Assembly: GCA_019057795.1 (NCBI GenBank)
Contig: JAHLWS010000026.1
Location: 61,461-125,460, forward strand
DNA length: 64,000 nucleotides
Direction of reading: 5' to 3'
From: Promethearchaeota archaeon
GTDB taxonomy: Archaea > Asgardarchaeota > Lokiarchaeia > Sigyniarchaeales > SOKP01
Shown here: positions 500-36,766 of the stretch, one piece after another
How the letters are laid out: each line of letters starts with the position of its first letter
How positions within the stretch are numbered: position 1 is the stretch's first letter
Program-made: the position numbers and the translations under genes
Notes under the pieces: generated by a model
Told to the model about the DNA's origin: nothing
Seen by the model: the letters and a program-made list of their open reading frames with translations, nothing else
Databases searched by the model: none

Positions 500-769
500 T
501 TTTTTATAGTTAGATATTGATCACTTAACTATATAAAGATATCTATCTTTTCACATGACAAAAGGGAAAATCGAAAATAGGTTAGTATAAGGCTATTAAA
601 AGTCAATTTAAAAAGATACTGCGATTATATTACTAAAAATGAGAGTTTTTGGAAATTTAGACGAGATTTAGGAAATTATTATAAGGAAGTTTATATTCTT
701 TGTCTAATTTCTAAGAATAGCATAATTCCCATATTGGATTTCCATGTTGTAAGTAAGTTAAACAGGTAA

Positions 770-1594
770 CTACGAAATAATTTTCTTTTGAATTTTTTTA
801 ATAATTTTTCGACGAAAATCTATCTTTTTCTCATTAACCAATTCAATTATAGCGTTATATATCATGTATTTTCCATATTTTTTTTTAAAAGACTTTAAAA
901 TTGCCTTTAACAATCTATTCTCGTCATACCGTGCTTTCTTATTCTTCAGATAATAAAAATTTACAATTCTCTTTTTCAAGACATTTTTTAAATTCTTATC
1001 GTAGAACCGAGCGATCTTGTACCCTGAAAATTCCGTACACAATATGTTCCAGCTAGGAATTCCTGTAAAATTTGAATCCCTAAAATAATAGCTATCGTAT
1101 CGAGTTTTAAAAAACCCGCGTTTGTTTTTATTTAATGGTTTAGAAAAATGAAGTGCGAAAGGCATTCTAAGAGATGCCTTATTTTTACGAATGTTCAAAT
1201 TAACGTAATAGACACGGCCCCCATACATTCGATGCAAGAAATTTTCTGCTAAGCTAATTTTTATACATTTGGTATCAACGGGGTATTTTGGCGATGCAAC
1301 ACAGTTCCCTTCCCCATATAACACCCATAAAATGTAGATACCTTGTTGATTATAATCCTTCGTTCTTTTGATAATTTCTTTTACAGTAATTTTAGAATTT
1401 TGAACTTCTACTACTACTTCTTTTCCTGTATCGAGTTTAAAATACACATCGGCAAAGCGATTCCCTAAATATTTTTCAAGGGATCTTTTTATTACCGACT
1501 TATCGTTTTCATAAATATATTTGTACAATAATAACTTGATCGCTTTATGGAAATGAGATTCTGCTGGAGTGCTAATCAGTGAGATTTCCTTCAT
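770..1594 (-). CDS. CoiA-like PD-(D/E)XK nuclease family protein
   Basis: ESxxH near the N-terminus and E...RFADVY...VVEVQxS motif typical of CoiA-type nucleases. Confidence 0.7.
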   Translation of the reverse strand: MKEISLISTPAESHFHKAIKLLLYKYIYENDKSVIKRSLEKYLGNRFADVYFKLDTGKEVVVEVQNSKITVKEIIKRTKDYNQQGIYILWVLYGEGNCVASPKYPVDTKCIKISLAENFLHRMYGGRVYYVNLNIRKNKASLRMPFALHFSKPLNKNKRGFFKTRYDSYYFRDSNFTGIPSWNILCTEFSGYKIARFYDKNLKNVLKKRIVNFYYLKNKKARYDENRLLKAILKSFKKKYGKYMIYNAIIELVNEKKIDFRRKIIKKIQKKIIS

Positions 1595-1744
1595 TTTGCC
1601 CTAAATAGCAAAAAGCAAGTTCTTTTCTTAAAAAGATTCTTAGACACTTAATATATCTAAACAGTATTATGAATTTTTGAATTTTTAGACCAAATTTGGG
1701 TGGTTACAAAATTCAGTGATGGGGTTTAATATAGTTAAATATAG

Positions 1745-2518
1745 TTAAAAAATGAAAATTAGAAAAAAACTTATTAAAAATGTTAAGATAGAATTAATAA
1801 AAAAATATGTTAAAATTTGAGTCTTCTGATTAATAGTTTCAGATAATAAGTTTTCAAGATTTTTAAAATTACCTTCTTTAATAGTAGTTTCTATATTTTT
1901 AAATTCTATCTCCAATTGAGTTTCTAATTTTGTTATGCCAATTATATTATTTGAAGCCTGAACTGCTTCTTTAAGTAAATTTAATGCCTTTTCATATTTT
2001 CTTTTGTCTAATTCTTCACGAGCTTTGTTTCTAAAAGAAACTGCTCTTTTTTTATTAATTAAATAACGATTAAACAGAAAATATAACCATAATATAAACA
2101 TCATTTGAAGAATTGAAGAGAATATAAGTTCATTAAGAGTATAAGAACTAGAAATCTTAAAATAAAAATAAAGCATATAAAAGAAAACCAATAACCAATA
2201 CCAATTAATTTGCAATAAACCATCGTTTTTATTTGAAAATTCGGATTTTACATAAATATAAGAGGTCCAATAAAGTAAAATACTAAATGATATTATAAAA
2301 ATAAATAGATTTATGAAACTTAAACCAAAATAAATAAAATTAAAAACCAGAATTAATAAATTTAGATCAGATTTTGTATTTTCTTTTTGAAATCCTCCTT
2401 TAACATAATATATAAAAAGAATTAAAAATTCTCCCGTCAATAATGCAATGAATATGAAAAACAATATGAACTCCAATTGAACATTCAAAATAAAAATTTG
2501 GAACATGCTATAAATCAT
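1745..2518 (-). CDS. polytopic membrane protein with a C-terminal TPR/MIT-like helical hairpin (cassette passenger)
   Basis: Several hydrophobic segments, then AREELDKRKYEKALNLLKEA and a terminal TM helix; very AT-rich. Confidence 0.65.
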   Translation of the reverse strand: MIYSMFQIFILNVQLEFILFFIFIALLTGEFLILFIYYVKGGFQKENTKSDLNLLILVFNFIYFGLSFINLFIFIISFSILLYWTSYIYVKSEFSNKNDGLLQINWYWLLVFFYMLYFYFKISSSYTLNELIFSSILQMMFILWLYFLFNRYLINKKRAVSFRNKAREELDKRKYEKALNLLKEAVQASNNIIGITKLETQLEIEFKNIETTIKEGNFKNLENLLSETINQKTQILTYFFINSILTFLISFFLIFIF

Positions 2519-2592
2519 ATAGGGAATTAATTATTTAAACATTCTATTCCCTAAATTGGAAAAAAAAACTAGTTTTGGCGGATTCAATTTAA

Positions 2593-2669
2593 TCAATCTT
2601 TACAAAAATGTCTGTGAATTCAGAGAATCCCTTGATAAAAAGATTAAAAATTATAAACAATTGGGGGCA
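2593..2669 (-). pseudogene. possible degraded zinc-ribbon N-terminus of an IS1/IS1595-type transposase
   Basis: With frameshifts it reads C-P-(N)-C ... K-G-F ... R-H-F-C-K-D-stop. It lies inside the right-hand TIR, downstream of a GGTGA SD at about 2806-2810. Confidence 0.35.
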
Positions 2670-2924
2670 ATATTTCTCCTTCATGGAAGATATATTTAAA
2701 TCCATCTTCAGAACAAATAGAAATTTATTTTTCTTATTATAATTTTTATTTGATTAATTTAAAATTTCCTTAATTGTTTGTTCGAGATCTAATTTTCAAT
2801 TGAATTCACCTATCAGTCATCACTGAATTTTGCACCCAACCCCAAATTTTCCTTTAAATATAATTAGAATATTAAAAATTCATTAAGCTGTATACAATAA
2901 AAAAGCAGAGTTTACTAAATAAAT

Positions 2925-3650
2925 GTGATAAAAATGGTTGATAAACATAGCCAAAGTTTTTTTGGGCAATCGACGGGGCTTACGATTAGAAGTTCTTCAA
3001 AAACAGAACCGTTTATCTTTTTGAAGTGTATCAAGAAAAAATCCGATGGTTCGTGGGAAAAACCCTCTTTAGGAGAAGGAAAGACAATAAAATGTAATTT
3101 AGACGAAATCGTAATGATCTTAGATGTACTAAATCGAAATAGGGCCTCGTGGACCAGCTTTCATAATTTCAACGATGTAAAAACTCAAATATCTTTTAAA
3201 TGGGAGGATAACGCCAAGCAAAAATTATTAATTTATATCGGTAAATATTCTAAGATGTTAAAATTTGCCCAAATTGAAATTTTCAGGTTGTTATTAAAGC
3301 ATATATTAGACGAAAAAATCGAGTTTTCTACGGTTTTGAACTTTGACACTTTAAATAAAAGGGCACTATTACCTAAAGCAGTTAACCAAATAATTGAAGG
3401 AAATAGCTCAAAGACATTACCAATTGTGACAGAAACGGTAGAACGCAAAGAAAGTGAAGTTAGTCAAATAAAAGGCGTTATTGAAGGTGAAACCGAAAAA
3501 GCTTTGCTTATCCAGTTTAACGAAGAGAAAGAAGTGTGGATTCCTAAATCAATTATTCGATCTGATTACAACACTTCAGTAAAAGATAGCACCCAAGATT
3601 TCTTAATCGATAACTGGATACTAAAAAGAAATAATATTAACGCCAATTAA
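2925..3650 (+). CDS. hypothetical protein; N-terminal Whirly/PC4-like ssDNA-binding fold candidate plus small C-terminal beta domain
   Basis: Duplicated beta-sheet/helix pattern (HSQSFFGQSTGLTI, KSDGSWEKP, NLDEIVMIL, SFHNF, LKFAQIEIF); C-terminal ETEKALLI...EVWIPKSII. Confidence 0.55.
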   Translation: MIKMVDKHSQSFFGQSTGLTIRSSSKTEPFIFLKCIKKKSDGSWEKPSLGEGKTIKCNLDEIVMILDVLNRNRASWTSFHNFNDVKTQISFKWEDNAKQKLLIYIGKYSKMLKFAQIEIFRLLLKHILDEKIEFSTVLNFDTLNKRALLPKAVNQIIEGNSSKTLPIVTETVERKESEVSQIKGVIEGETEKALLIQFNEEKEVWIPKSIIRSDYNTSVKDSTQDFLIDNWILKRNNINAN

Positions 3651-4843
3651 CTTTTTTTTTTAAGATTCGGAATAAATTCATCGTCGCAAAGAGCTTTTAA
3701 TTCCCTGTTATAATCAATCATTTTTTTAGCAATTTCAGGATGAGAAAGTAGTTGTATTTCCGCTTTATCGTCGCGATCCCATAATAAGTAAGGAGTAGTT
3801 TCGTGTGGAACCTCATCCTTAACTTGATTTACCCAATCATCAGGTAATTCGTTTTTTAATTCAACATCTAGCATCCGCGCTAAAAATAACGTCCAAGCTC
3901 TTGGTACGGCAGTCATTAAATAACCTCCTCCTCCTCCTGCAATCCATTTGTTCTGACAGTAATCATGAGCAGATGTGTAGAGTGTTTGAGCAATGTCTCG
4001 ATAAATCGAAATCGAAAGCCCCATTTGTGTTAAAGGATCGTTAAAGTACATGTCTACTCCTAACTGAGTTAATAAGACATCGGGGGCATAGGCTTCTAAA
4101 ATCCTAGGTACACAATAACGAAATAATTTTCGAAACATTCTATTATCAGTACCTGGCAACAAAGGAAAGTTAATAGAAAATCCTTTTCCTGCTCCTTCAC
4201 CGACTTCCTTTGTGTTTCCAGTACCTGGAAATAAAAATTTTCCGCTTTCGTGAAAAGAGACCGTTAAAACATTTGGATCGTCGTAAAAAAAACCTTGTAC
4301 ACCATCTCCATGGTGACAATCTATATCCAAATACGCAATTCTTATATCATTTTTTAAATTTTTAAGATGATGAATAGCTACGGCAATATCGTTAAAAATA
4401 CAAAATCCCGAAGCTTTTTTTTTATGTGCGTGGTGAAGTCCTCCTGCTGGATTAAAAGCAATCGTTATATCGTTGTTTTGCCAAACCATATCTGCAGCTA
4501 ACAAACTTGCTCCACACACTAACGCTGATGCCTCGTACATGCCTTTAAAAACAGGAGTATCTCCAGTACCTAACCCATAGAGATATGGTTGAACATTTCT
4601 ATCCGAAGGGTTCTCGCTTAATTTTTTAACTATTTCCACATACTCTGGGTCGTGAGCTCTTTCTATTTCTTTTTGTGAGGCGGGACTTGGTTCAAAGATC
4701 TCCAATCTTTCGTTATTAAAAAGATTTAGTTTCTCCATAAGGCTATATGTAAGTTTAATCCTTAAAGGTCGTAAAGGGTGCTGTGGTCCAAAATTATAAC
4801 TTTGATATTTATTGGTATAAATAAGCGCTGTCTTATTAACCAT
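3647..4843 (-). CDS. class I histone deacetylase / AcuC family Zn-dependent deacetylase
   Basis: HPLRPLR, GGLHHA, SGFCIFND, DIDCHHGDG, QLGVD and GGGGY motifs. Confidence 0.95.
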   Translation of the reverse strand: MVNKTALIYTNKYQSYNFGPQHPLRPLRIKLTYSLMEKLNLFNNERLEIFEPSPASQKEIERAHDPEYVEIVKKLSENPSDRNVQPYLYGLGTGDTPVFKGMYEASALVCGASLLAADMVWQNNDITIAFNPAGGLHHAHKKKASGFCIFNDIAVAIHHLKNLKNDIRIAYLDIDCHHGDGVQGFFYDDPNVLTVSFHESGKFLFPGTGNTKEVGEGAGKGFSINFPLLPGTDNRMFRKLFRYCVPRILEAYAPDVLLTQLGVDMYFNDPLTQMGLSISIYRDIAQTLYTSAHDYCQNKWIAGGGGGYLMTAVPRAWTLFLARMLDVELKNELPDDWVNQVKDEVPHETTPYLLWDRDDKAEIQLLSHPEIAKKMIDYNRELKALCDDEFIPNLKKKS

Positions 4844-35089: not shown

Positions 35090-36766
35090 ATGGAAAATAA
35101 AGAAATAGAAAACGAAGCAAAAAGGAATAATGAGATTAGTAAAGAATATCGATTACTTGCCAGAAACTCCCTTTACTCTGGTTTACATAACTTTACTTTA
35201 ATTATATATTCAATGATTCTTTCATTCTTGTTGGCAAGGTTAATTTCAATTGAAACTTGGCAATATTTCATATTAGCAAATACAATTATTTTAATGATTA
35301 CACAACTTTCGCGTTTAATACCACCTTCTTTAGAATCATCACTGAATTATTATATTCCAAGATATTTTATTTTAAAACAAAATTCTAAGTTAAAATCATT
35401 CATTATAAGATCATTATTTTTACGGTTACTTTTTCTAATTCCAGTATTTTTAGTTAGTTTTTTAATTTTCTTCGTATTTAATGATTTTTTCAGGGTTGCT
35501 TTTAATGATAATTTAAGTCTTTTATTTATATTATCTCCTCTAATTTTAATTGATAGCTTAAATTTAACTTTAAGAAGTATTAATAGTGGTTTTAGCAGAT
35601 TTAATATCAATTTTTTTCTATATTTAACAAGAATAATAATTAATCTCTCAACTTTACTATACTGCCTTCTATTTGTTAATAACATTTTGATAGAATTAAT
35701 CGCATTGATTTCTGTGTTTTCATATTTAATACCATTTTTTCTTAATTGTATTATTGTTTTTAAAACACTCTATAGAATTAAAAGGACTAAGGAAGCACCA
35801 TTATCTTTCAAAAAAGTATCGAACTTAACTTTTACCTATGGCACCCCTATTGTTTTCAGTTATTTTCTTAGTACTTTTTGGGGAGAACTCCAAAAATTAG
35901 GAATAGGTGTTAATGATGCTGCTCTGCCTGAGGGAGAAAAAATAAATTTAACAGGATTCAATATTGCGAATAGTTATGCAACTATTTCAAAAGCGATTAT
36001 GCTCTCCCTAAATACATCTTTATTGAACTCTTTTACACGATTAACAACTAAACAATATTCTGAAAATATACCTTCATTTTATAATCTTCTAATTAAATAT
36101 TCTCTATTTATATTGACTTTAATTTCAGGGTTCTTATTTTTCTTAGTTGATTTCAATTTGGTTCTTATCTATGGTGAAAAATATCTACAATTTTCTTTAT
36201 TTCTCAAATTAATAATAATTTCAGTAATTTTTCAAATACTCATTGTTCCATTTGATACATTTATGTTATCTCAAAATAAAACAAAAATTTTAGCTCCAAT
36301 AAAAGCAATTGTAATTATTATTCAAATCACATTTTTTTTTATATTATTATTTTATTTTGGAGTTATAGGGGCTCTAATTGGGCTGATAATTATTGAATTG
36401 TTAATTTTTATTTTTTATTCGATCTTAACTTTTAAGATTGCTAAAATTAAGTTGAAAATGGGAAACTTAATTCTTCAATACTTGATTTTTTTCATTTCTA
36501 TAGGAATATCTTTATTTTTAGAAAACATCGTATTAAAGGAACTTTATATAAATATTCTTACAAACCTAAATTTATTAATTTTAAAAGATCTCCCAATATT
36601 TTCATTAATTATATTTTTTATAACATTTATATTCCTCTATGTAGTATTAAACATCATTAAAAAAGAAGATTTAACATATTTAGAGTTGTTCTTTAACAAG
36701 GATACTAAAGTAGAAAAATTAATTCGTAGATTTTTAAGAGTTCTTAAAAAAATAACAATTTCATAG
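35090..36766 (+). CDS. oligosaccharide flippase (Wzx/MATE-like)
   Basis: About 14 TM helices, LARNS...LLAR, IYGEKY, GVIGA; located in the glycan locus. Confidence 0.85.
   Translation: MENKEIENEAKRNNEISKEYRLLARNSLYSGLHNFTLIIYSMILSFLLARLISIETWQYFILANTIILMITQLSRLIPPSLESSLNYYIPRYFILKQNSKLKSFIIRSLFLRLLFLIPVFLVSFLIFFVFNDFFRVAFNDNLSLLFILSPLILIDSLNLTLRSINSGFSRFNINFFLYLTRIIINLSTLLYCLLFVNNILIELIALISVFSYLIPFFLNCIIVFKTLYRIKRTKEAPLSFKKVSNLTFTYGTPIVFSYFLSTFWGELQKLGIGVNDAALPEGEKINLTGFNIANSYATISKAIMLSLNTSLLNSFTRLTTKQYSENIPSFYNLLIKYSLFILTLISGFLFFLVDFNLVLIYGEKYLQFSLFLKLIIISVIFQILIVPFDTFMLSQNKTKILAPIKAIVIIIQITFFFILLFYFGVIGALIGLIIIELLIFIFYSILTFKIAKIKLKMGNLILQYLIFFISIGISLFLENIVLKELYINILTNLNLLILKDLPIFSLIIFFITFIFLYVVLNIIKKEDLTYLELFFNKDTKVEKLIRRFLRVLKKITIS

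Follow-up and report, generated by a model that had tools for sequence, protein, structure and literature searches.

Positions 1698-2841 of the window, the 64,000-nt stretch of a Promethearchaeota archaeon that we analysed (G000:C26:61461-125460, from a 4.95-Mb genome of 31% G+C), very probably hold a non-autonomous DNA transposon of the mobile insertion cassette (MIC) type, in which a passenger gene has replaced the transposase gene. The cassette would have inserted between a CoiA-like gene and the gene starting at 2925, duplicating 8 bp (CCAAATTT), and would be moved in trans by a zinc-ribbon DDE transposase of ~470 amino acids (aa), the product of a 1.63-kb insertion sequence (IS) with near-identical ends. 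The 1144-bp unit has 22% G+C. Its inverted terminal repeats (TIRs) are 24 bp long and agree at 21/24 positions, and a perfect 8-bp target-site duplication (TSD) abuts both of them (Table 1); on these points, direct reading agrees with the first-pass annotation of this DNA. The 15-nt TIR core, CAAAATTCAGTGATG, occurs exactly twice in the window, against a chance expectation of 0.31 for matches with two or fewer mismatches, and the TIR pair is not due to chance. A partial core match on the minus strand at 35337-35351 (AATAATTCAGTGATG, 2 mismatches) is without the GGGTGG-type outer part and is probably fortuitous. The sole long open reading frame (ORF) of the unit encodes a membrane protein of 257 aa on the minus strand, with no transposase inside, again as annotated earlier. 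By contrast, the decayed zinc-ribbon trace (CPxC...FCKD) that had been proposed was not recovered: tblastn with four full-length transposases of the parent IS found no significant transposase remnant in the cassette, the best match (E 0.002-0.14) falling within the low-complexity membrane ORF.

That the unit arrived by insertion is seen in relatives. Positions 700-3700 of the window were searched in 30 of them and the matching loci aligned, which yielded three congeners (G015:C9, G014:C77 and G012:C41) with contiguous flanks around one C(C/T)AAATTT. These loci read GAATT..., then a single CCTAAATTT, ACTAAATTT or CCCAATTTT, then TTCTTTAAATA. Such an empty site is what an insertion with an 8-bp duplication predicts, and a single 8-mer between the neighbouring genes is what the first-pass annotation had suggested looking for.

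The same cassette also occurs at other sites. Fourteen metagenome contigs carry the cargo gene and, wherever the ends lie on the contig, they have both TIRs and the same subterminal sequences, ...GTGATGACTGAYAGGTGAATTCAATTG on the 5' side of the gene and ...GTGATGGGGTTTAAWA on its 3' side. At least five flank pairs distinct from that of the window were found (L080/L081, L085/L091, L088/L087, L089 and L086); in addition, L090 shares its right flank with L086 and has a different left flank. The L088 copy is framed by its own perfect TSD, AAAAACAA. In L082 the flanks are those of the window's site and the cassette is inverted, so that the membrane cassette is found in both orientations; L083 (JABUBN010000923.1) also represents the window's site and has a methyltransferase unit stacked before the cassette, whose inner TIR is truncated. 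The cassette moves as a whole unit, with the same ends and gene recurring in unrelated flanks.

In the cargo protein we count four to five membrane helices; its middle segment is helical and TPR-like, and a membrane helix closes the C terminus. The TPR-like signal is weak (Pfam E 0.04; Protein Atlas 0.82), and no Pfam family was assigned. Neither a paralogue in the same genome nor a homologue in any of 41 congeners was found; metagenome proteins supplied 24 homologues with identities of 63-99%. In the 13 copies that were aligned, all frames are open and more than 60 invariant residues are shared. Six of 12 aligned homologues begin at the position of the ATG at 2506 (M5), which is therefore probably the true start. 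A minus-strand TTTAAATA lies at 2532-2539, 26 nt upstream of this ATG, so that, judging from archaeal promoter geometry, the cassette probably brings its own TATA promoter and yields a leaderless mRNA. Against other copies, the cargo has dN/dS values of 0.56-1.06 (NG86; the extreme A+T bias may inflate them), which points to weak constraint and almost neutral evolution of a frame that is nonetheless open everywhere. The low G+C content, the ORF without a known family and the high dN/dS would also suit a decayed autonomous IS whose 257-codon ORF is a relic or is open by chance. This reading is very improbable: from base composition, we estimate the probability of such an open frame by chance at ~1e-11, the frame stays open in aligned copies down to 63-65% identity with its 60+ invariant residues, and no transposase similarity was found.

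The ends belong to a larger family of transposase-less cassettes. We scanned 42 genomes of the genus with a 19-nt TIR pattern, TGGNTRCAAAATTCAGTGA, allowing up to two mismatches, and obtained 72 matches in 32/42 genomes (reversed control, ~7); a few matches that were coding-sequence coincidences were set aside. TIR-bounded units with other cargo and without a transposase are present in G042, G007, G052, G043, G051, G011, G039 and G005 (Table 1), and none of the cargoes of the TIR-bounded units in the genus is a transposase. Single TIRs lie beside the commonest cargo, a winged-helix gene, in G043, G032, G005, G009, G040 and G042. Across 27 distinct TIR pairs, the TSDs match perfectly (8/8) in 11 and at 7/8 positions in 3. 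Both had been suggested as checks in the first-pass annotation: further copies of the ends, which occur in the archaeon's own genome and in relatives, and cassettes with different cargo, which occur in relatives. The own genome (G000) has solo 24-nt ends with 3-6 mismatches and no detectable partner at C27:9436(+), C32:4585(-), C55:39319(+) and C71:117909(-). The last of these has a 188-aa gene next to it, a homologue of the cargo (194 aa) in the G042:C85 cassette, and is, for this reason, probably a decayed cassette.

The window's site itself has received different units in different genomes. In G005 it holds two genes, one for a SAM methyltransferase and one for a 181-aa protein, separated by a third TIR-like copy; in G051 a 772-bp cassette is followed by alpha/beta hydrolase and MarR-type genes, up to an outer TIR. 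Two further congeners show hot-spot turnover in this intergenic region. An insert of 879 bp in G008 (L018, G008:C34:242875-243754) encodes a membrane protein and has at most a decayed left end, ACATTTACCAGTGAAT, and in G009 (L021, G009:C93) the DNA on the CoiA side is unrelated and richer in G+C.

A parent element for these ends exists. In the genus, the TIR variant GGGTAGTTACAAAATTAAGTGATCGCG adjoins the 3' end of a transposase-like ORF (G008:C19, G009:C217, G009:C380 and G008:C39), and truncated transposase copies lie directly inside TIRs in G051:C19 as well as in G008:C19, G009:C380 and G009:C217; in two of these genus copies, the contig ends inside the element. A 181-aa fragment from the genus is the C terminus of a family of ~455-516-aa proteins from Promethearchaeota metagenomes. 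We found 107 transposase homologues, many on ~1.6-kb contigs, which is the pattern expected of multi-copy ISs that drop out of genome bins. Full-length ISs came from genera beyond this one, within its taxonomic family and order (L096, L097, L100 and L101). They measure 1626-1636 bp, have an ORF of 460-472 aa and TIRs such as GGGTAGTTACAAAAYYCAGTGATG, GGGTAGTTACAAAACCCAGTGATG and GATTGGCTACAAAATTCAGTGATG, and are flanked by perfect 8-bp TSDs (GATGTTTT, CGAAATTT, AAAATAAG and CTATTTTT). TSDs of the family are A+T-rich, as in CCAAATTT, CGAAATTT, GATGTTTT and AAAATTAT. The autonomous IS with the same TIRs that the earlier annotation had anticipated is therefore represented by these four elements, with near-identical ends and 8-bp TSDs. 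Similarity between cassette and IS is limited to about 24-38 bp per end, that is, the TIR and ~12 subterminal bases, and the cargo gene has the polarity of the transposase gene relative to the ends. A region of ~110 bp at the right-hand end of the cassette recurs in L090.

An alignment of 22 transposase sequences has invariant D190 (in GYDEIH), D249 and E373 (in TNNxxE), together with a CxxC...CxxC arrangement in which C103 and C106 are invariant and C68 and C71 nearly so. These residues mark the protein as a zinc-ribbon DDE enzyme of ~470 aa in an unclassified family. It reaches no curated IS family cut-off: the IS6 model NF033587 scores 34.6-39.4 bits, and IS6 matches overall span 35-43 bits (cut-off 125), the IS66 model 27-38 bits (cut-off 180) and the ISH6 model NF041731 16-39 bits (cut-off 240). 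Matches to ISL3, IS256 and IS1 were weaker than these, with IS256 (NF033543) at 20-42 bits against a cut-off of 150, and then only for distant relatives, and IS1 (NF033558) at 16 bits against 100. PF13610 gives at most 29 bits, for more distant transposase relatives only, and DUF6431 matches the transposase with 17-21 bits. The IS1595 domain PF12762 had no match in the 42 genus genomes or on the transposases, and a PDB search with the transposase profile returned nothing below E 0.1. Membership of the IS1, IS1595 or IS6 families, which had been named at first for their GG-starting ends and TSD length, did not hold up. As to the wider proposal of an IS whose transposase was replaced by cargo and which is mobilised in trans, the replacement is supported, the step in trans is one that we infer, and the transposase relic had to be given up.

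To define the target, we aligned the sequences lying outside 70 distinct ends, after removing duplicates by their distal flank. T[AT]TAAA[GTC] lies exactly at -17 from the TIR at 24/70 ends and within 2 nt of this position at 27/70; the genome-wide background is 0.23% per position per strand (binomial P ~1e-45). On the opposite strand, the target reads (8 bp, usually ending TTTT)-T-[TC]-C-TTTAWATA, so that the element end lies 11 bp, and the duplicated 8 bp lie 3 bp, upstream of TTTAWATA. The opposite end of insertions typically abuts a T-run. Since the motif is already present in the empty sites of the window's locus, it belongs to the target and not to the element. About 6/10 full-length or truncated ISs with the transposase-5' end on the contig have that end next to the motif.

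This target resembles a promoter. TTTT[CA]TTTAWATA occurs 72 times in the own genome; upstream of ORFs of at least 150 aa, the coding-strand form lies at -80 to -21 in 14/19 cases and the reverse complement in 5/15. TTTAAATA is enriched about three-fold at -100 to -30, above TATTTAAA. From the orientation counts, the outward orientation is the promoter-like one, and the element appears to sit just upstream of a host promoter, going by motif resemblance and these small counts. At the window's site, the TTTAAATA octamer at 2853-2860 precedes the GTG/ATG of the gene at 2925-3650 (241 aa) by 65-74 nt, is conserved in the loci of all relatives and is probably the promoter of that gene. The idea that a host TATA box reads into the element ('promoter capture') was set aside, as the motif is promoter-positioned only in the outward orientation. 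Two other profiles gave no clear signal: the upstream regions of the 14 tRNAs called showed no clear box and were uninformative as a promoter reference, and the position profile of the heptamer TTTAAAG had no clear peak.

These observations suggest how the site may be used repeatedly. The transposase would choose a target to the exact base pair, placing the element end 11 bp upstream of TTTAWATA; motif and spacing survive the insertion, so that the same promoter can be hit again. Repeated hits would build stacks with the newest unit beside the box and with ends back to back, as in L095:2945-2996 (G084:C64), where the end of a full-length IS and that of a second element are separated by 9 nt (AAAAAAATG). 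Deletions between abutting ends could follow later; L083 and G005 have truncated junctions of this kind. That one site holds different cassettes, a copy in inverted orientation and tandem arrays in different genomes is probably owed to the survival of the motif, and repeated targeting may have built the stacks. The yeast element Ty3, which also seeks promoters, uses TFIIIB; by analogy, target choice here might go through promoter-bound TBP/TFB. Beyond this locus, we tentatively propose, as a possibility less probable than its negation, that Lokiarchaeia harbour a transposase-driven counterpart of integrons: one TATA-seeking DDE transposase would serve a pool of single-gene cassettes with shared 24-bp ends, and the cassettes would pile up, swap and invert at promoters, creating hot spots of accessory-gene turnover beside housekeeping genes.

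Different cassettes at the same site across genomes and tandem stacks (G005, L083 and G051) would also fit a gene cassette moved, integron-like, by a tyrosine or serine site-specific recombinase at a recombination hot spot. We give this as little credence as the decayed IS, because the units have inverted-repeat ends with 8-bp duplications that differ between sites, and a DDE IS exists that agrees with them in ends, TSD length and target motif; no recombinase gene was noticed among the ORFs at the window's site and the cassette loci examined, where no recombinase family was searched for. Lower again in probability is the view that the inverted 24-mers are operators or shared promoter elements of two outward-facing neighbours, with the membrane gene an ordinary resident. 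One repeat does have a TATA-like box next to it, and the copies point to the CoiA-like gene on one side and the 2925 gene on the other, but congeners that have neither repeats nor gene keep the single 8-mer, the repeats accompany the gene in unrelated flanks and also bound a transposase-bearing IS with 8-bp TSDs, and the TATA motif, being present in empty sites, is part of the target. Just as improbable are two separate insertions of MITEs (miniature transposable elements with inverted repeats) or solo ends around a pre-existing membrane gene: solo TIRs in the own genome (C27, C32, C55 and C71) and an 84-90-bp miniature in G049 lend it some colour, but each end is a single 24-nt TIR and no two-ended MITE, the 1144-bp unit in its entirety sits between the two copies of the 8-mer, the empty sites are also without the gene, and the whole unit recurs elsewhere with both ends and the same subterminal sequence. 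Separately, we considered the 24-mer as a C/D-box small RNA (sRNA) or as a promoter plus leader and rejected both; the GTGATGA/CTGA arrangement is unfit for a C/D sRNA, beyond CAGTGAT the similarity is lost at once, and no consistent set of genes lies downstream.

Several points weigh against a cargo-carrying cassette that is mobilised in trans. The own genome has no intact transposase of the family, only remnants, and a repeat scan of it found no multi-copy IS with these ends. At G000:C77:66900-67110 lies an internally deleted remnant of the parent IS of ~200 bp, with 39 C-terminal transposase residues and a decayed end, GGGTAGTTTCAAAACTTTATGA, starting just after a TATTTAAAGAAAAA motif; with only this 39-aa remnant present, current mobility in the own genome is unproven. 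No full-length transposase was recovered within the genus, the closest complete ISs being those of sister genera, and ~1.6-kb IS contigs may have been lost through the binning of metagenome-assembled genomes (MAGs). Mobilisation in trans is inferred from the shared ends, TSD length and target motif. The promoter function of the target draws on motif resemblance and a small genome-wide count, and the near-neutral dN/dS of 0.56-1.06 makes the usefulness of the cargo to the host doubtful. Finally, the TIR pairs L080, L085, L086, L094 and L095 are without matching TSDs. Recombination between copies or stacked insertions hence also occur, and these same pairs suggest recombination between copies as an alternative origin of the stacks.

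With these reservations, the non-autonomous transposon of the MIC type can be set beside known systems. MIC231, from the Bacillus cereus group, was reportedly described as a mobile insertion cassette by De Palmenaer and colleagues in 2004. The likeness lies in IS-type inverted ends, a TSD of parental length, passenger gene(s) where the transposase would be and mobilisation that is presumed to occur in trans by a cognate IS; of the defining features that can be tested here, the ends, the missing transposase, the TSD length and movement as a unit are all found. The present element differs in its Asgard archaeal host, its unclassified zinc-ribbon DDE parent, the many cargoes per end pair, insertion aimed at TATA boxes and stacking at one site. 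IS6 elements (IS26/IS240) are compact, ~0.7-0.9 kb, with a transposase of ~220-250 aa. They share the GG-starting ends, the 8-bp TSD and the best, albeit weak, hidden Markov model (HMM) similarity of the transposase core, whereas our parent transposase, at ~470 aa, is twice as long, its element measures 1.63 kb compared with ~0.8 kb, and its N terminus is a DUF6431-like CxxC...CxxC ribbon. The term mobile insertion cassette is in use (PMC2266710, PMC6199540 and PMC6542083).

In its target choice, the family is like TnGBS, whose insertions lie 15-17 bp upstream of sigma-A promoters and favour one orientation (Guerillot et al. 2014, PMC3942029), and in its end type and A+T-rich 8-bp TSD it is like the archaeal ISH6, which duplicates an A+T-rich 8-mer (PMC3942029). 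TnGBS, ISLre2 and ISH6 belong to the prokaryotic Mutator-like (p-MULT) elements. Like TnGBS/ISLre2, the family seeks promoters, inserting at a fixed distance of 11 bp upstream of a TATA-box motif. However, similarity to the ISH6, IS256 and IS66 models is sub-threshold only, the target is an archaeal TATA box rather than a bacterial -35 box, and transposase-less cargo derivatives are abundant. Archaeal MITEs, including the SM elements of Sulfolobus (reviewed in PMC10969869), are likewise non-autonomous and keep only IS ends, as does the 84-90-bp member in G049, but MITEs carry no protein genes, whereas this element and most of its relatives carry intact ones. With integron cassettes, the units share single-gene size, varied cargo and accumulation and stacking at one site; in contrast to them, they have TIR ends with variable 8-bp TSDs and no attC, are also scattered at many promoters, and the ORFs of the cassette loci examined showed no integrase.

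In the literature, we found no description of Asgard MICs or MITEs or of TATA-box-targeted archaeal ISs; the papers that we found survey IS families by standard classifiers only (PMC13343696) or deal with other element types (PMC11529989). New here is an Asgard MIC family, of cargo-carrying transposase-less derivatives presumably serviced by an unclassified TATA-targeting DDE transposase, the MIC type itself being known. Asgard transposons are barely described, and gene flow in this group bears on gene acquisition by the lineage ancestral to eukaryotes. The locus shows a route by which single accessory genes could move between chromosomal sites without plasmids or viruses, and a DDE transposase family that curated models miss. 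Base-pair-precise targeting of an archaeal TATA box would parallel TnGBS in bacteria and Ty3 in yeast and could become a tool for promoter-proximal insertion. For annotation, the 24-mers mark accessory islands and explain strain-specific genes beside conserved promoters.

Table 1 Features of the cassette locus (window positions) and cargoes of related TIR-bounded units (genome and contig).
Feature	Position or locus	Strand	Remark
TSD, left copy, CCAAATTT	1690..1697	.	Single 8-mer in empty sites of G015, G014 and G012
Left TIR, GGGTGGTTACAAAATTCAGTGATG, corresponding to the transposase-3' end of the parent IS	1698..1721	+	35-38 nt at 86-89% to right ends of ISs L097 and L094
Cargo gene, 257-aa multi-pass membrane protein	1745..2518	-	24 metagenome homologues
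Candidate internal TATA box, TTTAAATA	2532..2539	-	26 nt upstream of ATG 2506; archaeal promoter geometry
Non-coding subterminal region upstream of cargo gene	2540..2817	-	Outer ~110 nt recur beside another TIR in L090
Right TIR, reverse complement GGTTGGGTGCAAAATTCAGTGATG, corresponding to the transposase-5' end of the parent IS	2818..2841	-	
TSD, right copy, CCAAATTT	2842..2849	.	
Host target motif TCC-TTTAAATA, outside the element	2850..2860	+	Also in empty sites; octamer 2853-2860, 11 bp from element end
Cargo: 194-aa membrane-anchored protein	G042:C85		
Cargo: winged-helix protein (DUF7347/HTH_20), 205-214 aa, commonest	TIR pairs in G007, G052 and G051		
Cargo: two membrane ORFs	G043:C261		
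Cargo: PEMT/ICMT-like protein	G039:C6; G011:C105		G011:C105 is the window's site
Cargo: 161-aa protein	G007:C58		
Cargo: none; 84-90-bp miniature	G049:C104		

The CoiA-like neighbour was considered as a mobilising nuclease and rejected, as it is not associated with other cassettes. Three repeats of ~1 kb with 84-87% identity (G000:C20:5665-6716, C27:6851-7900 and C71:121344-122282), which may be paralogues of this CoiA-like gene, are present in the own genome; two of the three lie within a few kb of solo TIRs, and no link to cassettes was seen elsewhere. The PF13610 matches of the own genome, on C87 and C68, were examined as candidate parents and discarded, since they belong to a different IS with different ends. 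The C87 IS (L001:811-2445) encodes a 443-aa zinc-ribbon DDE transposase with weak IS6/PF13610 matches, has the ends GGGTAATTTTACAAA / GGTTAATTTTATAAA and is flanked by a palindromic 8-bp duplication, GAATATTC; a frameshifted relative lies on C68 (L002:815-2432). A second zinc-ribbon DDE family in the genus, at 26-29% identity and 400-481 aa, is represented by L077:797-1999 (G009:C199) and L072:122-1564 (G004:C300), with the ends TGTGAATCCGCAAAATTAAGTG / TGTGAATACACAATATTTCGTG, and has left a 62-aa remnant at G000:C43:24454-24642.

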